This document shows positions 3,884 to 45,631 of a stretch of DNA of 64,000 bases, piece after piece. The position numbers and the translations under genes are program-made. The stretch's first letter is position 1. Each line of letters starts with the position of its first letter. The stretch is from Candidatus Aenigmatarchaeota archaeon. GTDB taxonomy: Archaea; Aenigmatarchaeota; Aenigmatarchaeia; Aenigmatarchaeales; JACQIB01. The notes under the pieces were generated by a model. It was given only the letters and a program-made list of their open reading frames with translations. It searched no databases and was not told where the DNA came from. The stretch is taken from contig JACQIB010000001.1 of the NCBI GenBank assembly GCA_016198755.1, positions 1 to 64,000 of the forward strand. Direction: 5' to 3'.

Positions 3884-6800
3884 TTAGTTTAGAACAGTGT
3901 TTCTTACTTTTTGAGAATCATTTACAAGATCGTTCCTTGCTTTGTCTACAAATTCCTTTATTTCATCTAGTTTTTTCTTGAAGTTATCATAATCTACTCT
4001 ATTTTTCCCACCCTTTAACAAGTTTGAAAACCCGCCCACCAACCCATCAGTTCTGCCTCTTAAAAACTCTTCCATATTTTCCAAGTTCCCCCCATATTTA
4101 CTCCACATATCAAGTATTTGCTGCTGCGCATCCAAACTGTCCCCAAGCTCGCTTTCCCTCTGCTTCAAATAACGTTTTACCTCCTCCGGTGCATCAGGTG
4201 CAGCAGCAAGTTTTCTTAGCTCATTTACAGTTCTCAGTGCCTCCCCTGCATCATTAGCTTTCACAATAAGCCTGTCAAAATCTTCCATTAGCGTTGGATG
4301 TTCTTCCATAAATTTCTGTACTCTAGTTCCATCAGAAAATACACTTATTCCCCATCCAAAGGTTTCAAAAGCTGCATACCACCCCATAGAAACTCCAAAT
4401 GCCTTTAAACCAGCCGGATTAATTTTCCCTCCAGGAAGCTTTATTTTTCCATACTTTTCTATCCGGTTTTTATATATTCTATGTACAGCAACATCCTTTC
4501 CTATATCCAATGATGTCTCTCTGGCAAAATCTCCGGCAGCTTCACCCAAATTTTTCCTACCACTGTTATAGTCTTCAAGAGCTTTATTATAGCTACCAAG
4601 TATGTCAACTCCAGGCAAGACGGCTTTGTTCAGAACCAGTTTTGCAATGGTTCCAATACTCAAATGTTCAGTCATTTTTTCTACTGTCCAATCAGCACCT
4701 TTCTTAACAATCTTCTTCCCAAGTTCGTTATCTACATTTTTATTGGTGCCCTCTTTGTATGGCATCTTTTGCCCAAAGAAGTCATTCGTCAAACCTTGCT
4801 CAACATCTCTACGATTTATCTTTAATACATCAGATATAATATGGTTTATCCAATTAGAGAGCAACCTGGTGGTATCCAACAAAATGTTGCCCGTTACAAA
4901 TGCTTTCTCGGGCCTCGGATCCACGTAATCCCTTTCCAGTGTTAGTGTCCCATCAGAAAACTCCCTTAGCTCAAGATTAACATCACCATAATTTCCTCTA
5001 TATATTTTTACTGTTCCATGATCAGGTAGCCCCCACATAGTAGGCTGGAAGTCAACGACCTTGAAAATATCCCTTCCTACAACAATTGGCTTGCTGTATG
5101 GCAGAGTTGGAATAAGGTTTGCCAATTTTTCTGTGTTTGCACTAGCAAGGCTTTGCATTGCAGTCTGGTCTGCAACATTGTAGAAGCTCTCTTCTCCAGC
5201 ATCGTTTTTTTGCAGTCTGTAAACATTTCCATTATAAACAATATTCTTCGATTCCCCCCGTTTCATTCCTCTAAATTCTTTGGAAAGAATATCTCCGAGA
5301 CCTCCGCTGAAAGTAGTAATTCCAGACTTAACAGTTGAGCCTATAACAGCATTTTTCATTTCCGTTTCTCTAATCATTTGCAGCTCTTTTTTAATCCTTT
5401 CTTCATTTTCCTGTGCAAATTTATTTGCATAGTTATCCCCGTACTTTTGTTTTATATTGAAGTAATATCCGCCAGGCAGCCACTCAGAAATATACCTTAC
5501 AGAGCTTACATTTCCAAACCCAGCTAGATACCTGCCTGCAACATTCCTCCTTATAGCATTGTTATCCGCACTTGGTGTTATTGAATCTTTTTCAGTTGGA
5601 AATATCTGCACAACTCTTTGTTTAAGTTCAGATAGCTTTGTTTCGAATCCTCTTATTGTCTGTTTTGTAAAAGCAACAGCCGTTCCAATTACGAGAAGGC
5701 CAATTAACGAAACAGCAAGCGCAGTTTCTGTATTATTATCATCATTTTCTCCCCGTCCACCATTTCCGGTTTCAATAGAGAATGGATATGATATATTTGA
5801 TGTATTATCTTCCGAAGATTTAATTAAAACAATAGGAACTTTTATTGTAGCGCGTAATGCATAATCCTTTCCAATAACTTCATTTCTAACTGAAACATCT
5901 CCACCAGCGCTTCCTGAAATAAATGTTTCTGATTGTTTTTCAGTATATCTCAATTCACCAATCTGATTAGAATCATGTACATCCATACAAACCCAGAACC
6001 TATTACCAACAGCAACAGGATATTTTAGTTTGAAAATTCTTTCATCCCCATTTGCTATTGTTGCATTTACAAAACTATCATAATAAAGCAGTGTTCCCAT
6101 CCTATATGCATTATCTGCATACACAAACAGGTTTGTCTGTCGCATAGTTTCCGGAGTAAAGCCAAGAGTACTAACTTCTGTTAATTCTGCTTTTTTTTCA
6201 TTTGTTTCGAATGCTTTACAAAGTTCAATATATCTGTTATCAGGTATAACTCTATTAAGTTTAGAACTGCTGTCAGAATTTTCTGTCTGAAGCTTGATAT
6301 TTTCATAAACAATGTCTTTATTCGGAATAACTTTAATTTCCGAACTATAGACTGCAACTCTTGCATCTATTGCAAAGCTGCCTTGCACATCATTATCAGT
6401 TTTTGTTTGTCCGCCTTCAGGATAGTAATACACACTACTAGAACCACCATTTCTATAGTATGCAAAATATGTTTCTTCTTTGGAGTCTGGTGCACTTAAG
6501 CAGACCCAGAAGTTTCCAGCCACAGGAACTGGAGTTTTAAAGTTAACAATTTCCCCATGTAGATCACCAGTTATAGAATAATTTGAATAGTCTGTACCAA
6601 TAACATTTCCAGGAACTCCACCATTATCAAGCCTAACTGTCCCTTTCAATATTTTGCTGTTAATATCTCCTCCATTAAAACCAGCAGCCCTTATCTGTGT
6701 AACAGCGGCATTTTTATCATTAATACCAACAATATTGCACAGTTCTACTCCGTTTTTAAGTGTACTGCTTGTTTTTTCATCAATATATCCCCAGAATTCC

Positions 6801-11596: not shown

Positions 11597-12186
11597 TTAA
11601 ACTCCCCCAATACAGTTTCCCCATCCACAACATTCTCCCCCCTACTAACATTTATTTTAAACTGTTTTGATGGAAGGGCTAAAACAGTTGTGGAGCCCAA
11701 AATTATCTTACCTATTTTCTGCCCCTTTTCAATCTTAGTACCCTCTTTCACCGAGCAGACAACCCTCCTTGCCAGCGCTCCAGAAATCTGAACTATAGCT
11801 GCAACAGTTTTTCCGGTTTCCATTACAATAATGTTGCGCGCGTTCTTGAAAAGGCTTTTCTTTATGTAAACAGGCAATCTTTTACCTTCCTGATATTCAA
11901 CCCTTTTTATGGTTCCATTCAAAGGAGCCCGTGTAACATGTACATTTAGCGGGGAAAGCCTTATTACAATAAGCTTTGCTTTTTCCAATCCCTTCACTGA
12001 AAAATCAAAAAGCTTGGAGAAATTCCCTTCAAAAACTTCCACAACCTTTCCGTTTGCAGGTGATACAATACCTTTCTTTGGTACAGTCCTCTCCGGAGAG
12101 CGGTTGAAAAACATATAGAATTCCACACAAGCAACCAAAATTGCAAAAGCAGCAATCCATTCCCAAACCATACAAAACCCTTCCAT
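11593..12186 (-). CDS. psd: Archaetidylserine/phosphatidylserine decarboxylase proenzyme
   Basis: FFNRSPER, VSPANGKV, NVHVTRAP and LGST self-cleavage motif. Confidence 0.88.
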   Translation of the reverse strand: MEGFCMVWEWIAAFAILVACVEFYMFFNRSPERTVPKKGIVSPANGKVVEVFEGNFSKLFDFSVKGLEKAKLIVIRLSPLNVHVTRAPLNGTIKRVEYQEGKRLPVYIKKSLFKNARNIIVMETGKTVAAIVQISGALARRVVCSVKEGTKIEKGQKIGKIILGSTTVLALPSKQFKINVSRGENVVDGETVLGEFK

Positions 12187-12205
12187 TCATTGGTTAAAAA
12201 GGCAT

Positions 12206-12414
12206 TGGTGCCCCCGCTGGGATTTTCACCCTACCTGAGGGGGTAGGGCTGCATTCAACATTGTTTATGTTGTATGCACCGAAACTTTTGAAGTTTCGGT
12301 TGTAGGGGGAAACATCCCCCTGAGCTTTGAACCCAGGTCCTAAGGTCCGCAACCTCATGTCCTATCCATTCTAGCACACGAAGCTTGCTTCGCGCGAAGC
12401 TAGACTACAGGGGC
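12206..12414 (-). tRNA. tRNA-Arg(GCG) with two non-canonical BHB introns (12369-12397 in the D-loop; 12223-12325 in the T-loop); CCA encoded
   Basis: Spliced form GCCCCTG TA GTCTAGCTTGGATAGGAC A TGAGG TTGCGGA CCTTA GGAC CTGGG TTCAAAT CCCAG CGGGGGC ACCA folds as a cloverleaf. Confidence 0.88.
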
Positions 12415-12475
12415 TACAGAAGATTTAAATACCTTTAGCTTTTAAATAGAGCAGAAGTATGGAAGTTGTGAGAAA

Positions 12476-12637
12476 ATGGTATTGAAGTGCAGCACATGTG
12501 GGATTAATCTGGTTGGACAGGAAGAGTTTACAAAGTTTTTATGTCCATCCTGCGGGCAAAAAGAGTTTGTACGTTGCAGGCAGTGCAAAGTCCATTCCAC
12601 CAAGTATAAGTGCGAGTGCGGTTTTGAGGGGCCATAA
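12476..12637 (+). CDS. Small Zn-ribbon protein (DUF1610/HVO_2753-like), not in the ORF track
   Basis: MVLKCSTCGINL...FLCPSCG...RCRQCK...YKCECGFEGP, in the usual position upstream of EF-1beta. Confidence 0.88.
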   Translation: MVLKCSTCGINLVGQEEFTKFLCPSCGQKEFVRCRQCKVHSTKYKCECGFEGP

Positions 12638-12889
12638 ATGGGAACCGTTGCAATATCCATAAAAATTACACCAGAATCCCCAGAAGTGGATATAGAGAAT
12701 ATCAAAAAGAAGATACTTTCTGACATGGTTGTTAAAGACCTAAAAATAGAGCCAATAGCTTTTGGTCTGAAAGCAATCAAAATTTTGATAGTTAAAAATG
12801 ATACAGGCGGGACAGATGATGTTGAGGAAAAAATAAGGGGAATAGATGGGGTTGGAAGTGTGGAAGTGGAAAGCGTTACGTTACTTTAG
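12638..12889 (+). CDS. ef1b: Translation elongation factor 1-beta
   Basis: ITPESPEVD and EPIAFGLKAI motifs. Confidence 0.93.
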   Translation: MGTVAISIKITPESPEVDIENIKKKILSDMVVKDLKIEPIAFGLKAIKILIVKNDTGGTDDVEEKIRGIDGVGSVEVESVTLL

Positions 12890-27794: not shown

Positions 27795-27831
27795 TGCCAA
27801 CAGAGGAAAGAGGAAAGGGTCTGGAACATCA
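27795..27831 (+). other. 5' arm of the pre-23S processing stem with a canonical BHB
   Basis: TGCCAACAGAGGAAA-GAGG-AAA-GGGTCTGGA pairs with TCCAGACCC-CCTT-AAG-TTTCCTCTGTTGGCA at 32936-32966. Confidence 0.9.
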
Positions 27832-29071
27832 CAATAAAGGATACTGTATGGTGGATGACTCGGCATGGGTTACCGATGAAGAGCGTAGCAAGCTGCGATA
27901 AGCCTGGGTGAGACGCAAGCAGTCTTAGAACCCGGGATTCTCCAATGCGACCTCGCGCCAGTTTAGGCTGGCATTCGCATACAGAAATGTTTGCGAAAGG
28001 GAACCCGCTGAATTAAAGCATTTTAATAAGCGGAGGAAGAAAAATCAAACGAGATGCCGCTATTAGCAGCGAGCGAAAACGGCAGAGACCAACCCGAATC
28101 TTTTTGTGTAAGCAGGAAGAGATGTGGGGCCAGGTACAATCTTTCTTTCGACCTGAAGTTCCGTGGAACACGGGTGCCATAGAAGGTGAAAGTCCTGTAA
28201 GGGAAAAAAGAAAGATTGATTCTGGAGGAAGAGTACCATTCCCCGATTCGGGAGTGGGAATATGGGGGTCATCAATCTCCAAGTCTAAACATAAACCATG
28301 GCCGATAGCGAAAGAAGTACGGTGACGGAATGTTGAAAAGAATTCTTCACCGAAGATGAAAAGAACCTGAAACCATACAGTGATAGTCGCCCATGGCGCG
28401 AAAGGTGCCCTTGTGAAGGAAAACTGCGTGAGCAGTGTGTACGAACAGGGGCTTACAGCGTTATGGGGTTCGTTTCGAAACACGTGGTAGGGAGTTTGCT
28501 TTCCTGGCGAGCTTAAGCTGTAAAACGGCGAAAGCGTAGCGAAAGCGATTGCACGCAGCCCGCAAGGGTCAGGTGCAAGGTTCGAAAGAGCCTGTAGTCA
28601 GGGGGGCAAGACCCGAAACCTTTCGATCTTACCCTGGGCAGGATGAAGTGCGGCGAAAGCTGCATGGAGGTCCGATACCGATGCTAGCGCTAACTTCTCC
28701 AGCAGGAGAAGCTTCCAAGAAAAATCTGATTGGAGGAGGTGCAACCTGCTCGGGTGACCTGGGGTAAGGGGTGAAAAGCCAATCGAGAAAGGTAATAGCT
28801 GGTTCCTCTCGAAATGTCCCTCAGGACAGCCTCGCTGGAGGCAGCTTGTGGGGTAAAGCACTGATTGGGGTGTTAAGGTGGGAAACCGCCGGCACGCCTG
28901 TCAGACTCATAACCTGCAAGCACCGTAGAAGGCGGGAGTGAGGGTACCTGGGTAAGCTAGGTATCCGAAGCGGGAACAACCGCGCCTGAGGTTAAGGTCC
29001 CTAAATGATAACTAAGTCACAAAAGTGGTGTCAGTCCAAAGACAGACGGGGCGTAGGCTTAGAAGCAGCCA

Positions 29072-29927
29072 ATTTGAGTAGTAATCTATACTTTAGAATA
29101 CGAAAATCAATAAAAGGAAGATTGATTAATAGAATAAAGTGCACAAACTACCGCCAAAAAATCCGAAAATCGCGTTGAAGACTGTTAACCTGCAAGGGTT
29201 AACAGCTTTTAGAAAAACTAAGCCTACGATACCCAATTACATAAATCCGCAACTAGCATATCTGGCGGGAGCACTAAGAGATGGTACAATTTCAAAAACT
29301 ACAGGGCCGTATGGCACAAAATACTATCTAGCAATATGCAATAAAGACAAGATATGGCTTGATAGTGTAATACGGCCTACCATAGAAACAATATTCAACA
29401 TAAAACTTGGGAAAATACTGAAAGACAGACAAAAACACCAAATCAGAATAAGAAAATATGGGATAGTGCAATTCTTGGCAGATTTGTTCCAACATCCATA
29501 TGGTAAACAAACCTTATGGAAAACCCCAAAGATCATAGAGGATTCGCATAAAGAAATAAAAAAATGGTTCTTGCGAGGATTCTATGATTCTGAAGGAGGT
29601 TGTGGGAACATAACAAAATTGTATAATAAATATCCGTGGCACAGTCCATTTCCTATCAGATTCCATTCTGGATGGATAAATGAAAAAGAATGTCCTCCAC
29701 TGGATTCTATTAGGTATATATTGACTGAAGATTTTGGTATAAAATGTTCGCCTGTTATCTTTTCTAAGAGATATAAAACAGGCAGATACAAAACTCAAGT
29801 AAAAATGTTTTATATAAAAATTACAGATAAAGAACAAAAATTGAAATTCATTAAAACCATAGGTAGCTCAAATCCAACCAAATTTAAAGAACTATTATTT
29901 TTGAAAGGATTGCTGCTCAAAGCTGAA
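29072..29927 (+). mobile_element. 23S intron 1 (856 nt, ~E. coli 1077/1078), homing-endonuclease intron
   Basis: BHB: CAGC-CA|A / GCTG-AA|C; 15-bp terminal stem TTTGAGTAGTAATCT/GGATTGCTGCTCAAA. Confidence 0.9.
29139..29927 (+). CDS. Double-motif LAGLIDADG homing endonuclease; the linear ORF runs on into the exon to 30068
   Basis: LAYLAGALRDG and FLRGFYDSEGG motifs; AT-rich. Confidence 0.88.
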
Positions 29928-30733
29928 CCGCATAATCAACGCGTAACAGCGGACCGTTCGAGGACTGATGCGCTGAAAATGGACGGGAGTAAGTTATCTA
30001 CCGAGACCTCAGATACCAAAAGGTATAGCGTAGAGAGGCGCTCTGTTCGGGTAGAAGTTGGGGCGTAAGTTCCAATGGACCGTTCAGAGATGAGAATCCT
30101 ACCGATAGTAGCAGCAAAGAAGAGTTGGAATCTCTTCCGCCCGAAAGGCAAGGTTTTCCCGGCAACGATACTCGGCCGGGAGTAAGCCGATCCTAAGTCG
30201 CCCCCTAACGGACGGCGACGAAAGGGAATACGGTTAATATTCCGTAGCTGCAGCCATAGACGGGGTAACCCAAGCCCAGGCAAAATGTTTTTGGATATGT
30301 TCATGTAAGCGAAGCGTTTAAACCCTTGGAGTTCCGTCAAGGAGAGAAAAGGGTGAATGCGTTACAGGCTTCGGCGCAAGCTGGAGTTGAGCAAATTCCA
30401 AGAATCCATGAAAATTTGCCAGGGAGCGATTGGCTGCATTCGTACTCAGAACCGACGCAGGTGACCTTGTCTGAGAAGGACGTGGCGTGACGAGATACAC
30501 CAGGCTAGGGAACTCGGCAACACTGGCCGCGTACGTTCGCTATAAGCGGTGCCCATCTAGAGATAGGTGGGTCTCAGTGACCAGGGCCAAGCGACTGTTT
30601 AACAAAAACGTAGCCGGTTGCTATGCGGAAACGCTGTGTATAACCGGTGAGGCCTGCCCAGTGGCGGTGTGTCAAACTCGGTTTCAACCGAGCTAAGCCC
30701 CGCTAAACGGCGGCGGTAACTCTGACCGTCTTA

Positions 30734-30774
30734 ATCCAATCATGTAGAGAAATCTGTATGGTTGCATTGGGTAC
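30734..30774 (+). other. 23S intron 2 (41-nt hairpin, ~1927/1928)
   Basis: Removal restores GTCTTA|AGGTAGC; stem CAATCATGTAGA-GAAA-TCTGTATGGTTG. Confidence 0.85.
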
Positions 30775-30901
30775 AGGTAGCGTAATCCCTTGCCGATTAA
30801 ATGTCGGCCTGCATCAATGGCTTAACGACTTGGCCGCTGTCCCGGTCTGGAACTCGGCGAACTTGCTATTGTGGTGAAAAGGCCACAGACCCTCAGAGGG
30901 A

Positions 30902-31163
30902 ATCGGAAGAAGTGCTCTCGAAAATTTTAAAAAATAAAAATAGGTGATAAAAATGAGAGAAATCAAAAATTTAATAGAGACAAAGTCTTGCGATCCTATA
31001 ACAGCATTAAATGTTGCAACACAAATAGTGTCAGCAGGAGCAGCAGTTGCATCTGTATACTATGCATCTAAAAAGAAATAAAATAAATACCTACCAACAT
31101 AAGCGAGAAGGTATTATGATCATGAATAGTTAGAATAGAATTTGAGCATTTCTCCGACCTCAT
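30902..31163 (+). other. 23S intron 3 (262 nt, ~2054/2055) carrying a small ORF
   Basis: BHB GAGG-GA|A / CCTC-AT|A; removal restores CAGAGGGA|AGAGAAGACCCC. Confidence 0.88.
30953..31081 (+). CDS. Intron-encoded 42-aa hydrophobic peptide
   Basis: RBS AGGTGA, then MREIKNLIETKSCDPITALNVATQIVSAGAAVASVYYASKKK*. Confidence 0.65.
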   Translation: MREIKNLIETKSCDPITALNVATQIVSAGAAVASVYYASKKK

Positions 31164-31591
31164 AGAGAAGACCCCGTGGAGCTCTGCGGCAGCCTGTCGT
31201 TGCTGTGCGGTCGCGGTTTCATAGAGTAGTTGGGAGAGGTTATATCAGCGTTTTCGGGCGCTGGTTACTCGGCAATGTAACACCAACATCTCGTGACTGT
31301 ACTGCTAACCTCGACTCGGGGGACACCGATTGGTGGGCCGCTCGGCTGGGGCGGTACGCTCATGACAGGAGATCATGAGCGCGCAAAGTTATCCTCATCC
31401 CGGTCAGAAATCGGGAGTAGAGTGTAAACGCAAAAGGATGACTGACTGTGTTCCGCAAAGCAAGGAACGCAGACGCGAAAGCGTGCGTTAGCGATACACC
31501 GAGTGGTCTTTGATGGATTTCGGTGACTTCAGAAAAGCTACCCCGGGGATATGGGTTGGCGCAGAGAAGCGGGTTTTCTTGGAACAATTTA

Positions 31592-31649
31592 ATAAGGCAA
31601 AGCTATCTTGCCAATAGAAATATTGGTTTGCAAAGCAAGCTTTATGCTA
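31592..31649 (+). repeat. ~57-nt hairpin repeat, copy 1
   Basis: ATAAGGCAAAGCTATCTTGCCAATAGAAATATTGGTTTGCAAAGCAAGCTTTATGCTA. Confidence 0.9.
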
Positions 31650-31725
31650 CACATACGTGTAGTGATTTTTCTAGAAAATCCGTGATAACCATCATTCTTC
31701 CACACATGCTATGATCGTACCTTGT

Positions 31726-31782
31726 ATAAGGCAAGCTTACTTGCCAATAGAAATATTGGTTTGAAAAGCAAGCTTTATGCTA
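31726..31782 (+). repeat. ~57-nt hairpin repeat, copy 2
   Basis: ATAAGGCAAGCTTACTTGCCAATAGAAATATTGGTTTGAAAAGCAAGCTTTATGCTA. Confidence 0.9.
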
Positions 31783-31876
31783 ATCAGAGTTTGAGAGCAA
31801 TTACTTTTTGTGGAAGAACATCTCTGCGCCAAGCCACTTCATAACAGAGTCGTGGCGGGCGAGAGCTCCTATCGAC

Positions 31877-31938
31877 ATTTCGTCGAGTATAGGGTTTCAA
31901 TTTTAGAGTTAGCTATGCCAATATTCGCGGAACGAAAA
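31877..31938 (+). other. 23S intron 5 (62 nt, ~2483/2484, H89)
   Basis: Relaxed BHB ATCG-AC|A / CGAA-AA|C; removal restores TATCGAC|CCCGCGCG. Confidence 0.8.
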
Positions 31939-32031
31939 CCCGCGCGTTGCTACCTCGCTGTCGGCTCCCCCCCTCCTGGCTGTGCAGTAGCAGCCAAGGG
32001 TGCAGGTGTTCACTGATTAAAGGGGGACGTT

Positions 32032-32122
32032 AGAAAGTGCAGGATAATGCGTGGTGGGTAATTCTTCCTATTTTTGATTTGATTAGTTAGAATTATCTAC
32101 CCAAATCTTGGCTTTCCGTGAA
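32032..32122 (+). other. 23S intron 6 (91 nt, ~2576/2577)
   Basis: Relaxed BHB GACG-TT|A / CGTG-AA|A; stem GAAAG/CTTTC. Confidence 0.8.
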
Positions 32123-32143
32123 AGCTGGGTTCAGTACGTCGTG

Positions 32144-32508
32144 ATCTGACAAGTGGGTAACGCGGGAGGAAAAGGTCTTCTAGTGAAAAATGACTGGAAA
32201 ATGTTATCCAAAGATTTCACAAATCTCATGCCTCAGATGAACTATATAGCTTAAGCTTTAGCGCTAGCAATGACTATAGTATACCTGGCATGGAAAATAA
32301 TAGATCAAGCTTATAGGGAAAATGAAGTGAACAAAAAGAAGTCACATCTGATTCCCATAAGAAAATTCTCGGGCTATGAATGAACCGTCCCAAAGCACCC
32401 GGCAAAATGTGCGTTCGGAGTAGCTAATGAGCCTTGCTATGAGAATTTTTACAAGCTTGGTTTTACTTTTAAGAAGACCATCCTGCATTCCCATTTAACG
32501 AACGATAG
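32144..32508 (+). other. 23S intron 7 (365 nt, ~2597/2598)
   Basis: BHB GTCG-TG|A / CGAT-AG|A; removal restores ACGTCGTG|AGACAG. Confidence 0.87.
32201..32383 (+). pseudogene. Intron-7 single-TM small ORF interrupted by an in-frame TAA
   Basis: MLSKDFTNLMPQMNYIA*ALALAMTIVYLAWKIIDQAYRENEVNKKKSHLIPIRKFSGYE*. Confidence 0.45.
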
Positions 32509-32574
32509 AGACAGTACGGTTTATATCTTCTGAGGGTGCATAAGTGCCTGACCCGAAGGAGCGGTGAGTACGAA

Positions 32575-32605
32575 ATGCTTACACTTAGCTGTGCGAGCAC
32601 GCAAA
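32575..32605 (+). other. 23S intron 8 (31 nt) in the sarcin-ricin loop (~2661/2662)
   Basis: Relaxed BHB TACG-AA|A / CGCA-AA|A; removal restores AGTACGAA|AGGAAC. Confidence 0.82.
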
Positions 32606-32646
32606 AGGAACGCCGCTTCGCGGCCTCTGGTTGACCAGTTGTCGTA

Positions 32647-32694
32647 ACAGCTTTAGCTATGGCGTTAACACGCAGAGAGCTATTGCTGCGATAA
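32647..32694 (+). other. 23S intron 9 (48 nt, tip of H96)
   Basis: BHB GTCG-TA|A / CGAT-AA|A; removal gives the hairpin TTGTC-GTAA-GGCAA. Confidence 0.78.
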
Positions 32695-32871
32695 AGGCAA
32701 AGCTGGGCAGCTACGCTGTAGTCTTTAAGGCCTGAAGGCATCTAAGGCCGAAATGATCGGGGAAAAGAGGCATTGGCCACAGGCTAGATAACCTGTTTGA
32801 TAGGAGCCGGGTGTAAGCACGAAGCTTCGGCGACGTGTTCAGCCTGGGCTTACTAATAGGCCATTAATTTT

Positions 32872-32928
32872 GCATAAAGCAAGTTAGCTTGCCAATAGAA
32901 ATATTGGCTTGCGAAGCAAGCTTTTGCG
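32872..32928 (+). repeat. ~57-nt hairpin repeat, copy 3 (between the 23S 3' end and the processing stem)
   Basis: GCATAAAGCAAGTTAGCTTGCCAATAGAAATATTGGCTTGCGAAGCAAGCTTTTGCG. Confidence 0.85.
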
Positions 32929-32930
32929 AA

Positions 32931-32966
32931 TGGTGTCCAGACCCCCTTAAGTTTCCTCTGTTGGCA
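32931..32966 (+). other. 3' arm of the pre-23S processing stem
   Basis: Complementary to 27795-27831, forming the BHB. Confidence 0.9.
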
Positions 32967-33048
32967 GATTTTTGTTCTTTAACAATTTAGCGTTAGCTAT
33001 AAAATCTAAAACAAGAAGGCTTAAAACCTTCTGCTCCAATTCTTTCAC

Positions 33049-33744
33049 ATGCAAAACCCAAGGCTCTCAATAATAATGCCAGCCCATAATGAAGAGAGTG
33101 TTATAGCTGGGGTTATAGAGAAGTTTTGCCCAGCCCTTTCTCAGGCAGAAATTATTGTTGTTTGCAATGGGTGCACAGATAATACTTTTGCTGTTTCATC
33201 CAAACTAAAAGAGAAATACAAAAACTTGGTTGTGCTGGACTTTGGAAGGATTTTCAAGGGAGGGGCAATACTTGAGGGGTTTAAAGTTGCGCGCGGAGAT
33301 ATTGTTGGTTTTGTGGATTCTGACGGAGCCTTTGAGCCTTCTGATGTAATAAAGATTGTTGGAGGTATAAGGGAAGCTGGTGGGGCTATAGCAAGCAAGT
33401 GGACCGGGAAAGGATTTGATAGTCCATTCTCGCAAGAAAGGAAGTTCTCTGCACGCGTATGGAATTTTTTTGTTAGATTATTTTTAGGATTAAAACATCC
33501 AGATACACAGGCAGGTTGCAAGTTCTTTAAGAAAGAAGCTGTAGAAGCAATAGATAAAAATTTTTCAGCGCGCGGTTTTGCCTTTGATATAGAGCTGCTT
33601 TACAAGATTGAAAAAGCAGGGTTCAGAGTGAATGAGGTTTTCTGTGTACCAAAAGAAACAAAAGCAGGAATTTTCAGCCTAAAAAGCACGCCTAAAATGT
33701 TTCTGGATCTTCTGAAAGTCTGGTACAACTCCAAGTTTCATTAG
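33049..33744 (+). CDS. GT2 dolichyl-phosphate glycosyltransferase-like
   Basis: IIMPAHNEE, FVDSDG, DTQAGCKFF and FAFDIELL motifs. Confidence 0.88.
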   Translation: MQNPRLSIIMPAHNEESVIAGVIEKFCPALSQAEIIVVCNGCTDNTFAVSSKLKEKYKNLVVLDFGRIFKGGAILEGFKVARGDIVGFVDSDGAFEPSDVIKIVGGIREAGGAIASKWTGKGFDSPFSQERKFSARVWNFFVRLFLGLKHPDTQAGCKFFKKEAVEAIDKNFSARGFAFDIELLYKIEKAGFRVNEVFCVPKETKAGIFSLKSTPKMFLDLLKVWYNSKFH

Positions 33745-42625: not shown

Positions 42626-45600
42626 GTGAAAAAAATGGGATATGGATGGGGAAAGGATTTGAAAAAGCCCGAGTTTACAAAAGTCTCGGATGTTATTTGG
42701 GAGATTCCAACAAGCTTTAAGAAAGGAATGAACGTTCCAGCAAGAATATACGCAACAAAGCAGATTCTGGATCAGATGGACCTGATGGTTTTTGACCAGA
42801 TAACAAATGTAGCAACGCTTCCAGGAATTTTGAAATATGCTTACTGTATGCCGGATGGACACAGCGGCTACGGATTTCCAATAGGCGGAGTTGCAGCAAT
42901 GGATGCTGTTGAAGGTGTGATATCACCTGGAGGGATCGGATTTGATATCAACTGCCTCCACCCAGACTCAAAAATTTCTCTTTCCAATGGGACTTGGAAA
43001 AAGGTTTCTGATTTAGAGCATGAATGGGAAAATAAAAGAGTAAAGTTTTTTAATATAGAAAACAAAGCAGTTGAAAATGCCACACCCATTATGTTCATGA
43101 AACGTATGGAGGATAATAGTATTTTTGAAATAGTAACAGAAAGCGGAAGAAAAATAAATGTTACGGCAGAACACCCCATTCTAACTCAAAGAGGGTTTAT
43201 CAGAGCCGATAATCTGAAAGAAACAGATAATGTTTACACTCAGCCATTCAGCGGTGTAGAATACGAGAAGCCATCCGACGAGGTCATAGTTTCCTATGTT
43301 GACATAGAAAGAATTTTGGATGTCATAGGAATAACAAACTCTGGAAACGCAAGAGTTCAAATTTTAAATACACTTAAAAGAGTTGGTTTAAATGAAATAC
43401 GGTACAATTCCACGGCCCTGCCAGCTATTTTGAAAATAATGGGATTTGTTTTTGGAGATGGTTGCATATCTATATTGTCAAAAATAAAAAAAGGGATGAC
43501 AGCCTTTTATGGGAAAAAAGAAGATTTAGAAACTATAAAGGAAGACATAAAAAGTTTAGGGTTTAAAGCACAAAATATTTTTTCAAGGCAACGAAAACAT
43601 AAAATAGAAACTTATTATGGAACAAGCGAATTCGATTTTACAGAGCACTCTCTTTTAAAAAAATCCACAGGATTTGCAGCACTTCTCATAGCACTGGGTA
43701 CGCCACATGGAATTAAAACCTCTCAACCTTACAGGATTCCAAAATGGATAATGAAAGCACCTCTATGGCAGAAAAGACTATTTCTCGCAGCATTTTTTGG
43801 AGCAGAGCTTTCCTCTCCAAAAACTATTAATGCATATAATTTTTATATGCATCAGTTAAATATGAACAAACTAGAAATTCTAAAAGAAAATGGCGAAGAA
43901 TTTTTAAATGATATACGTCTACTGCTTTCTGAATTCTGTATAACATCTACATATCCCACTATAGTAGAAGGTAACCAGTATGTAGGCAAAAAAGGAAAAA
44001 CTATAGGTTTAAGAATTTGTATACATTCAAATCCGGACAATTTGGTCAAGCTCTATGAAAATGTGGGATACGAATATAATAAAGAAAAGTCAAATTTGGC
44101 CTGCCTTGCAGCAAATTACACACGCCTAAAGGAATCCATAAAATCACATAGGAGTGACATACGTACTTTGGCTCTTGAAATGTATAAATCAGGCGAAAGA
44201 CCGCGGGATATTAGAGCCGCTTTACTACAAGAAAACATATCAAAAAATTTTATAAACCATTCTATATGGCCTGATAGGAGCAATAATGTAAGGTTGCCTG
44301 CCGCATCAATTACTTTTGCTTTTGATGAATTCAAGAAAAATCTTATAGGAGATGGCATTGTTATCGACAAAATAAAAAAGATCGAACAACACCCCTATAA
44401 AGGATTTGTATATGATATTACAATTAACAATGAAAACCACAATTTTATAGCCAATAATATTATTTCTCACAATTGTGGAATGAGACTTGTTACTACAAAC
44501 CTTACTCTGAAGGATGTACAGCCTAAGCTGAAAGAACTTGTGGATAAGTTGTTCCAGAAGGTTCCAGCGGGAGTTGGTTCAGAAGGTTTTCTAAAGCTTA
44601 CAAAAGATGAGTTCAGGAAAGTTGTTGAGGAAGGGGCAGAGTGGTGCGTGAAAAAAGGATATGGATGGGAGGAAGATTTGCAGAGGACAGAGCTGTATGG
44701 GAGATGTAAGGATGCTGATGCAAAGAAAATCAGCCAGAAATCTGTGGATAGGGGGTATAGCCAGATAGGAACTTTAGGTTCTGGAAATCATTATTTGGAA
44801 ATACAGCATGTAAAACCAGAGAACATTATTGACAAGGCTACAGCAAAGGCATTCGGAATTTTCCCTGATCAGGTTGTAATAATGTTTCACTGCGGTTCCC
44901 GCGGGTTTGGCCATCAGGTTGCAACAGATTATCTTAACACTTTCCTTTCTGTAATGGAAAGCAAATATAAAATAAAGATTTTAGACAGGGAACTTGCATG
45001 TGCTCCGTTTAATTCTCCGGAAGGACAGGATTACTTTACTGCAATGAAATGCGGAATAAATATGAGCTTTGCAAATAGACAGGTTATTCTGCACAGGATT
45101 CGTGAAGTCTTTTCAGATGTTTTCAAACAGCCAGCAGATAAAATGGGTTTACAAATGGTTTATGATGTTGCCCACAACAGAGGTTCTTTGGAAAAGCATT
45201 TAGTGGATGGTAGCTGGAGGGAAGTTATTGTACACAGAAAGGGGGCTACTGCGTGCTTTGGTCCCAACAGAACTGAAGTGCCAAAAATCTGGCAATCCAC
45301 TGGTCAGCCCGTAATTATTGGTGGTTCAATGGAAACAGGTTCATACCTTTTAGTTGGTACAGATAAGGCAGCAGAAACATTTTTTTCAACTGCCCACGGA
45401 GCAGGCAGAACAATGAGCAGGACAAAAGCAAAGGGATTATGGAGAGGGGAACAACTTGTGAAAGATATGCAGAAGAAGGGAATTTACGTGCGCACAGTAT
45501 CTTTCCCAGGATTAGCTGAAGAGGCTGGTGGAGCTTACAAAGATATAGATTCTGTTATAAATGCTGCAGATTTGGCTGGTATTTCAAAGAAAGTTACAAA

Positions 45601-45631
45601 ACTTGTTCCAATAGGAAACGTAAAAGGTTAG
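42626..45631 (+). CDS. rtcB: RNA-splicing ligase RtcB containing an intein
   Basis: MPDGH, GFDIN|C, GTLGSGNHY, HCGSRG, YDVAHN, HRKGAT and STAHGAGR motifs. Confidence 0.96.
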   Translation: MKKMGYGWGKDLKKPEFTKVSDVIWEIPTSFKKGMNVPARIYATKQILDQMDLMVFDQITNVATLPGILKYAYCMPDGHSGYGFPIGGVAAMDAVEGVISPGGIGFDINCLHPDSKISLSNGTWKKVSDLEHEWENKRVKFFNIENKAVENATPIMFMKRMEDNSIFEIVTESGRKINVTAEHPILTQRGFIRADNLKETDNVYTQPFSGVEYEKPSDEVIVSYVDIERILDVIGITNSGNARVQILNTLKRVGLNEIRYNSTALPAILKIMGFVFGDGCISILSKIKKGMTAFYGKKEDLETIKEDIKSLGFKAQNIFSRQRKHKIETYYGTSEFDFTEHSLLKKSTGFAALLIALGTPHGIKTSQPYRIPKWIMKAPLWQKRLFLAAFFGAELSSPKTINAYNFYMHQLNMNKLEILKENGEEFLNDIRLLLSEFCITSTYPTIVEGNQYVGKKGKTIGLRICIHSNPDNLVKLYENVGYEYNKEKSNLACLAANYTRLKESIKSHRSDIRTLALEMYKSGERPRDIRAALLQENISKNFINHSIWPDRSNNVRLPAASITFAFDEFKKNLIGDGIVIDKIKKIEQHPYKGFVYDITINNENHNFIANNIISHNCGMRLVTTNLTLKDVQPKLKELVDKLFQKVPAGVGSEGFLKLTKDEFRKVVEEGAEWCVKKGYGWEEDLQRTELYGRCKDADAKKISQKSVDRGYSQIGTLGSGNHYLEIQHVKPENIIDKATAKAFGIFPDQVVIMFHCGSRGFGHQVATDYLNTFLSVMESKYKIKILDRELACAPFNSPEGQDYFTAMKCGINMSFANRQVILHRIREVFSDVFKQPADKMGLQMVYDVAHNRGSLEKHLVDGSWREVIVHRKGATACFGPNRTEVPKIWQSTGQPVIIGGSMETGSYLLVGTDKAAETFFSTAHGAGRTMSRTKAKGLWRGEQLVKDMQKKGIYVRTVSFPGLAEEAGGAYKDIDSVINAADLAGISKKVTKLVPIGNVKG
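42953..44473 (+). mobile_element. Intein (507 aa) with a LAGLIDADG endonuclease domain
   Basis: Starts CLHPD; block B TAEHP; GFVFGDG and FLAAFFGAE motifs; ends SHN followed by extein Cys. Confidence 0.93.

Follow-up and report, generated by a model that had tools for sequence, protein, structure and literature searches.

Why a closely similar hairpin of about 60 nucleotides (nt) should occur three times within the reach of a single 23S rRNA gene is the question raised by the locus described here. The window, meaning the whole stretch of DNA that was analysed, comprises positions 1 to 64,000 of contig JACQIB010000001.1 of a Candidatus Aenigmatarchaeota archaeon (assembly GCA_016198755.1), part of the contig referred to here as C5; the genome amounts to 890,842 bp in six contigs with a G+C content of approximately 40% and is 89% complete. 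The element can be described as a hairpin module of archaeal rRNA introns that encodes no protein, is specific to its lineage and is either mobile or prone to insertion and deletion. With moderate confidence, the three copies are regarded as paralogous insertions of a short non-autonomous element whose insertion is local and whose survival is limited to places where RNA is discarded, the hairpin being gained and lost in the non-ribosomal parts of this one 23S gene, namely its bulge-helix-bulge (BHB) introns and its 3' trailer.

Copy 1 (site A, 31588-31649), copy 2 (site B, 31722-31782, 61 nt) and copy 3 (site E, 32870-32929), all on the plus strand, were each recovered by blastn-short, by a repeat search and with a covariance model, which confirms the three similar copies listed at these places in an earlier inspection of the letters, hereafter the sequence-only reading. 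The ends of the copies, which measure 60-62 nt, were set by analogy with the 61-nt unit delimited by an empty site in a related strain. Using blastn-short against the 890,842-bp genome, each copy matched only the other two (expectation value, E, 2e-16 to 5e-8), and the repeat search of the window yielded a single family (n=3) with 94% and 82% identity to the reference copy. The covariance model built from the three copies (65 positions, 19 pairs) scored them at 85-93 bits; the next-best match in the genome reached 18.7 bits (E 1.4), and two weak extra matches look like coding sequence. All three copies of the genome fall inside 1.35 kb of the 23S gene. The boundaries of the unit are sharp, the flanks of the copies are unrelated to one another, and the ends of the unit form an outer stem of 7-11 bp by pairing with each other, equivalent to the terminal inverted repeats of a miniature inverted-repeat transposable element (MITE).

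The 23S rRNA gene (27827-32872, plus strand; Rfam RF02540) contains six or seven introns. Its exons, mapped by blastn against four intron-less relatives (L015, L009, L010 and L011), lie at 27827-29071, 29929-30902, 31164-31551, 31841-31876, 31939-32033, 32123-32148 and from 32502 onwards. Copies 1 and 2 are situated in a 292-nt BHB intron at 31551-31842 (plus strand; its cut position may shift by 3 nt in either direction), defined by the exon map, by a 16-nt closing stem (31552-31567 / 31821-31836) and by a BHB motif. The central helix of that motif is paired at 4/4 positions (GGGG/CTTC, including two G-U pairs) between two ATA bulges, the inner helix at 5/6 with extension to 16 nt and the outer helix, which is weak, at 2/6; the BHB is therefore of the relaxed form. 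The same four intron-less relatives align across the gap. Downstream, a 36-nt micro-exon (31841-31876, plus strand) exhibits 86-97% identity over 31-36 nt to L018, L015, L009, L010 and L011, and in L021 falls within a 51-nt match starting at 31821. The predicted 292-nt excision equals a skip in a contig of a public RNA run, and the same contig joins the micro-exon to the following exon. Since the BHB test has a background of approximately 0.4 chance matches per intron window, a motif was counted only where its cut reproduces the exon map, as is the case for the 292-nt intron, an 856-nt intron, a 50-nt insert and the processing stem.

Copy 3 lies between the 3' end of the 23S rRNA, placed by a local Rfam search in which model position 2973 of 2987 falls at 32862, and the 3' arm of the processing stem. 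The arms of this stem (27795-27825 and 32936-32966, plus strand) form a 31-nt inverted repeat with 81% complementarity and bulges at 27814-27816 and 32949-32951, yielding a textbook BHB whose outer and inner helices are both fully paired (6/6), as is the central helix (4/4). At the other end of the gene, the 5' arm directly adjoins the 23S start. Among 19 loci of relatives, nine have a 3' arm that follows the 23S end without intervening sequence, which identifies copy 3 as an insertion; in the remaining 10/19 the gene ends are mis-set or the duplex is weak. Two copies in an intron and one behind the 23S 3' end is the arrangement given by the sequence-only reading, whose label 'intron 4' is explained by a 50-nt insertion at 28694-28743 with a BHB-like junction and holds only if that insertion is counted; otherwise the intron is the third.

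Evidence for gain and loss was provided by related strains. Twenty public runs contain part of the stretch, of which three DNA runs and one RNA run were compared at 90% likeness. Run X6, a groundwater run from another study, yielded strain pieces 96-98% alike to the window. Its record 26 (296 nt, depth 16.2) follows 31521-31721 and then directly 31783-31876, such that copy 2 is removed exactly, as a 61-nt skip, and copy 1 is kept; the shorter side of the junction measures 94 letters. The filled and empty versions of site B share 0 letters at the joint, and hence no target-site duplication is present. X6 also shows hairpin junctions at two sites that are empty in the window, both inside the intron of approximately 353 nt at 32149-32501. 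At site C (32295/32296), 7 other letters separate 32295 from the start of the hairpin in its contigs, and on the right-hand side a 14-letter stretch, a diverged form of 32296-32309, separates the end of the hairpin from 32310. At site D (32451/32452) a single letter stands between 32451 and the hairpin start in a junction contig, and at site E 9 letters stand between the hairpin end and 32936. The window thereby occupies sites A, B and E, with three copies in its genome, and X6 occupies A, C, D and E but not B, with at least four. Alignments were forward at 5/5 sites, so that every copy appears to lie in the sense orientation. Four X6 contigs span the hairpin core and 4/4 carry C at the position of 31627, changing a G-U pair to G-C. 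The proposal of a miniature mobile hairpin surviving in discarded RNA is supported by the absence of copy 2 from X6 and by the presence there of copies at sites empty in the window.

In run X5 about 41 extra letters were found at 32295-32302. Uncovered bins over 31569-31769 in runs X5, X11 and X15 do not constitute evidence of absence, and reads of the RNA run gave no cover over the hairpins, which is informative in neither direction. Two further ideas were set aside. The hexamer AAGCTT, which occurs twice per hairpin and also next to the X6 sites, was uninformative as a nuclease target given 797 copies in the genome (0.9 per kb), and 32451-32460 of the window was dismissed as the remnant of a deleted hairpin as the flanks do not match.

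The genome-wide BLASTn and covariance searches that the sequence-only reading had called for placed the copies exclusively in discarded parts of the 23S locus and found none elsewhere in the genome. The random intergenic scatter of an ordinary MITE or repetitive extragenic palindromic (REP) element, which that reading had named as its own refutation, was not seen; copies occur only in 23S introns or the trailer. Approximately 85 kb of the genome lies outside open reading frames (ORFs) of at least 100 amino acids. Given so much sequence free of long ORFs, random placement in non-coding DNA is unlikely to have put every copy at the 23S gene, and confinement to about 2 kb goes beyond what tolerance alone would explain. 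A small, locally inserting, non-autonomous element provides the best fit because the unit is sharp, has no target duplication, takes one orientation and is confined to a single gene. Under such a scheme the hairpin would be a selfish or neutral passenger, tolerated only where the splicing endonuclease cuts the RNA away or the RNA is trimmed. Its spread would be short-range, through copying and insertion at the DNA level with no target-site duplication, and the insertion step would use a host or trans-acting activity.

Several observations weigh against insertion by such an element. Besides the lack of a target-site duplication, the five sites share no target motif. Copy number is tiny, and local duplication, deletion and gene conversion could therefore give the same picture. 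The strain evidence consists of short Logan contigs at 90% likeness in a single comparison, in which the junctions at 32295, 32310, 32451 and 32936 are listed without the length of the shorter side and site D is represented by its left-hand junction; X6, where depths range from 8 to 16, may be a mixture of strains. The RNA-run contig is consistent with splicing of the 292-nt intron, short of proof, and may belong to an intron-less relative, as its sides are short (22-36 nt, and 29 nt at the 292-nt skip) and lie in a very conserved region. For copy 3, removal from the mature rRNA along with the trailer is presumed. Finally, a search of the 89%-complete genome for an associated transposase or reverse transcriptase, likewise suggested by the sequence-only reading, gave 0 matches to each of five Pfam families, PF01797 (Y1 transposase), PF07282 (TnpB), PF01609 (DDE_Tnp_1), PF00665 (rve integrase) and PF00078 (reverse transcriptase); as a control, the same PF01797 search was positive in 6/14 control genomes.

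One alternative is passive local rearrangement, in which the copies arise without any dedicated insertion mechanism, through segmental duplication, deletion driven by the palindrome and ectopic gene conversion within a highly transcribed gene, and the strain differences reflect old copies that were deleted or converted. Palindromes are deletion-prone. The crowding of all copies into 1.35 kb and the lack of a mobiliser among the five families both favour rearrangement, as does copy 3 of X6, which differs from copy 3 of the window at four positions, each of them making the X6 version resemble copy 2 of the window. This resemblance suggests conversion or replacement. On the other hand, rearrangement accounts poorly for sharp unit ends set in unrelated flanks, and to explain five different sites across two strains it would have to invoke many separate events. 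Slippage deletions normally rely on short direct repeats, and the empty site B, unlike such deletions, has no microhomology at its joint. Rearrangement by itself is accordingly considered rather unlikely, and local insertion of a small element is retained as the better explanation.

The hairpin family is private to one species-level lineage. A DNA search in 40 relatives gave 0 matches, and of the 42 genomes of the order searched with the covariance model only that of the window (G000) was matched, the other 41 giving none. Among the 23S loci of 29 relatives, the model returned one match of 12.4 bits (E 8.8), on an unrelated hairpin of genome G002. Searching public collections with the 20-nt core of the hairpin yielded three genome contigs, five metagenome contigs and 0 viral contigs at 19.8-26.7 bits; these eight matches were rejected as family members, since they comprise the bare core with the arms absent and are attributable to chance. 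Such scans may leave out records of the window's own genome or of very near ones.

Whether the hairpin is instead a functional RNA module, providing a binding site or folding aid in discarded pre-rRNA (for example for a processing factor, for a chaperone or to protect the excised intron circle), was assessed from its fold. The copies form a nearly palindromic long hairpin in which an outer stem leads through small internal loops to a 7-bp central stem capped by a GAAA loop. The plus strand gave folding energies of -15.7, -22.3 and -25.3 kcal/mol for copies 1, 2 and 3 (z -1.6, -3.4 and -3.6), and the minus strand folded less well than the plus strand (z -0.1 and -2.7 for the two copies computed). 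A function would be in keeping with this better sense fold, with the single orientation of all copies, with a 20-nt core including the GAAA loop that is identical in the three copies, and with changes at pairs that mostly preserve pairing through wobble. Such pair changes constitute weak evidence when drawn from three sequences: of the 19 consensus pairs 4 exhibit a one-sided change, mostly via G-U, and 0 a double compensatory change.

Against a function stands the finding that copy number and position vary between strains 96-98% alike. Presence and absence between close strains, together with the lack of any match in the remaining 41 genomes of the order, argue against a required role. No Rfam 15 family covers the hairpins: LSU_rRNA_archaea is the sole match in the window at the gathering score, and the two weak matches obtained over 31300-33100 at E <= 1 are not on the hairpins. 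Inspection by eye alone revealed nothing convincing in the way of C/D-box, kink-turn or tetraloop-receptor motifs. The suggestion that the hairpin is a protein-binding tag for spliced-out RNA found no evidence in its favour, and a functional module is judged improbable. The better sense fold and the wobble changes count equally for the preferred reading of an inserted element: the wobble pairs occur in the sense strand only, which makes it probable that the hairpin is kept as a compact fold of the transcript that spares the folding of the intron and pre-rRNA.

Comparable behaviour was encountered in sister genera. Self-comparison of 30 23S loci (29 relatives and the window) found intra-gene repeats of the window's kind only in the window's family. 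In G002, a hairpin of approximately 115 nt is present in three copies at three 23S sites (L023 2336-2458, 3402-3535 and 5102-5214), 76-86% alike, with compensatory changes in the stems and a z of -4.7. A DNA search of the G002 genome with one copy returned the query and one other, both in the 23S locus, and none elsewhere, the third copy falling under the threshold of that search. Under the strict BHB test, two of the three copies in G002 qualify as complete introns (123 and 134 nt); the remaining one breaks a strand that runs uninterrupted in the window and in the Rfam consensus. The pattern looks like rRNA intron transposition. In G005, modules of 73 nt are shared among three 23S introns (L025 1398-1470 / 6082-6153 and 2730-2801 / 6035-6104), the first pair folding as a hairpin with compensatory changes. 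The G002 and G005 families are unrelated in sequence to the hairpin of the window, and the recurrence of one habit with unrelated hairpins is a further point against passive rearrangement.

The G002 introns bear in addition on the suggestion that the hairpin may seed new introns and is linked to those of tRNA genes, being of the same family as an insert in the D-loop of a tRNA-Arg and giving rise to new BHB introns. In its support, a 13-nt exact match is present in the plausible tRNA-Arg D-loop insert, and a different hairpin family forms whole introns in G002. The 'related arm' seen by the sequence-only reading lies at chance level, as the match at 12381-12393 has an E of 0.75 and belongs to a set of 14 exact matches, 13-14 nt long, scattered through the genome, and the covariance model at E <= 10 found no match there; outside the 23S locus it gave only the two unrelated coding-like matches. 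The tRNA gene itself is unconfirmed, with ARAGORN reporting 0 genes in the window and Rfam 0 matches at E <= 1. Loose BHB-like matches surround the hairpins (for example, one excising 32873..32933), as against a control of 17.8 per 275 nt, and at none of the three copies did a bounding BHB rise above that background. Seeding of introns was not seen for the hairpin of the window, no copy of which appears to be an intron by itself, and the general idea is kept alive by the G002 family. For this genome, a seed linked to tRNA introns is close to refuted and was given hardly any credence.

The region concerned, at 12300-12425 on the minus strand of the window, comprises a tRNA-Arg(GCG)-like 5' part with a 25-nt D-loop insert followed by a GGGGGA...TCCCCC hairpin. 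No acceptor 3' strand was recognised nearby by eye, and the gene is missed by ARAGORN (in the window) and by Rfam (over 12000-12800). The locus may be a multi-intron or split tRNA gene.

The enzymes needed for archaeal BHB introns are encoded by the host. A splicing endonuclease is represented by two adjacent ORFs of 185 and 190 amino acids with the PF01974 domain (80 and 68 bits; contig C1, 37787-38576, minus strand), and an RtcB ligase was found at 470 bits. The RtcB gene, at 42797-45628 on the plus strand of the window, is a single frame of 1010 amino acids in which Pfam positions 1-50 and 48-426 are separated by approximately 1.4 kb; the interruption looks like an in-frame intein.

A more speculative extension, and a doubtful one, would treat the hairpin as a gene-less 'parasite of introns' whose sole niche is discarded RNA and whose movement, single in orientation and leaving no target duplication, would follow the transcript or the single-stranded DNA of the heavily transcribed rRNA gene. 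For example, the endonuclease and RtcB might re-insert excised pieces, with subsequent copying back into DNA; a strand-specific hairpin nuclease would be another route. If true, such elements would be the raw material for the protein-less BHB mini-introns of DPANN archaea, fully formed in G002.

Small palindromic non-autonomous elements of prokaryotes include MITEs, REP elements and the IS200/IS605-derived and Rickettsia palindromic elements, and IS200/IS605-type elements are strand-specific, take a single orientation and produce no target-site duplication. The hairpin resembles these palindromes in its length of approximately 60 nt, its lack of coding capacity, its inverted-repeat ends and its hairpin fold. 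It differs from them in having no partner transposase among the families searched, only 3-4 copies, confinement to the non-mature parts of a single gene and none dispersed in intergenic DNA. The many dispersed copies and transposase typical of a MITE are replaced here by three copies in one gene, and the Y1 transposase (TnpA or RAYT) to be expected of an IS200/IS605-derived palindrome is represented by 0 matches to PF01797 in G000.

Closer parallels are found among archaeal stable-RNA genes. According to a review (PMC4090602), introns transpose among the tRNA genes of Thermoproteales; the mechanism is described there as unknown and is supposed to operate on DNA. The likeness lies in near-identical, ORF-less units at different sites of stable-RNA genes in one genome, and in hosts whose splicing endonucleases tolerate unusual sites. 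The Thermoproteales units are whole BHB introns in tRNA exons, whereas the present element is a bare hairpin in an rRNA intron and the 23S trailer, does not appear to form an intron of its own and is unmatched among the tRNA genes of its genome. Copies that are each a whole spliced intron at an exon site were not found in the window, in contrast to two of the three G002 copies. Short hairpin introns are also described in 16S genes, where introns of different loci are too unlike to compare (<20% identity; PMC4496867). These too are small ORF-less hairpins of archaeal rRNA genes, beside homing-endonuclease introns, and co-conversion with a neighbouring homing intron is a described route of spread. 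The 16S introns are site-specific with the BHB kept, whereas here one sequence occupies five sites in discarded RNA and not in exons. A literature search at the level of titles and abstracts found no published description of a repeated hairpin inside archaeal rRNA introns. The novelty is the exact empty site in a close strain, within a known class of protein-less mobile sequences of archaeal stable-RNA genes.

With one exact empty site in a close strain and junctions at two further sites that are empty in the window, the 61-nt unit makes it possible to date and to test insertion events in groundwater populations in nature. Insertion of hairpins is one way in which archaeal rRNA introns grow in size, and in sister genera the same habit extends to whole new mini-introns; the finding thus bears on the spread of protein-less archaeal introns.

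The other introns of the 23S gene, all on the plus strand, were defined as follows. The 50-nt element at 28694-28743 is either a mini-intron or a helix-tip insertion, with 56 nt in place of 6 in the Rfam model and a BHB-like motif excising 50 nt. An 856-nt intron at 29072-29927 corresponds to a gap in the exon map and has a BHB with central helix 4/4 and inner helix 6/6, and an intron of approximately 261 nt at 30903-31163 is likewise an exon-map gap for which one BHB candidate excises 30902..31163. Behind the micro-exon, both sides of which are joined in the RNA-run contig, the exon map places a 62-nt intron at 31877-31938, which that contig skips and in which a strict BHB scan found none. 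The exon map further gives an intron of approximately 89-91 nt at 32034-32122, with a 91-nt skip in contigs of the RNA run and all three DNA runs, and the intron of approximately 353 nt that holds sites C and D; in the latter a strict BHB scan also found none and one X5 contig skips 350 nt.

Automatic annotation was led astray by these introns. The whole-window Rfam alignment ends wrongly at 32081, approximately 800 nt early, forcing the 3' domain into intron sequence, and the full-length alignment assigns the first part of the 292-nt intron to the 5' strand of a helix, a place that truly belongs to the micro-exon. Automatic rRNA annotation of such genomes therefore needs care.

The 856-nt intron contains an ORF of 263 amino acids (29139-29927, plus strand of the window), for which a search gave no Pfam match at E <= 0.001 and no meaningful PDB match. 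A weak match to LAGLIDADG_3 (E 0.0033, 18.1 bits) lies below the cut-off, and the product is likely to be a homing endonuclease that has diverged very far or is in decay. Immediately 3' of the processing stem is a 15-nt motif, TTTAGCGTTAGCTAT, at 32986-33000, repeated with one change at 31902-31916 in the 62-nt intron (family D8). Strings of 'TAGCGTTAGCTAT + A/T-rich' form occur 3' of the processing stem in several relatives, and the 15-nt motif that follows the stem may represent a promoter or terminator signal.

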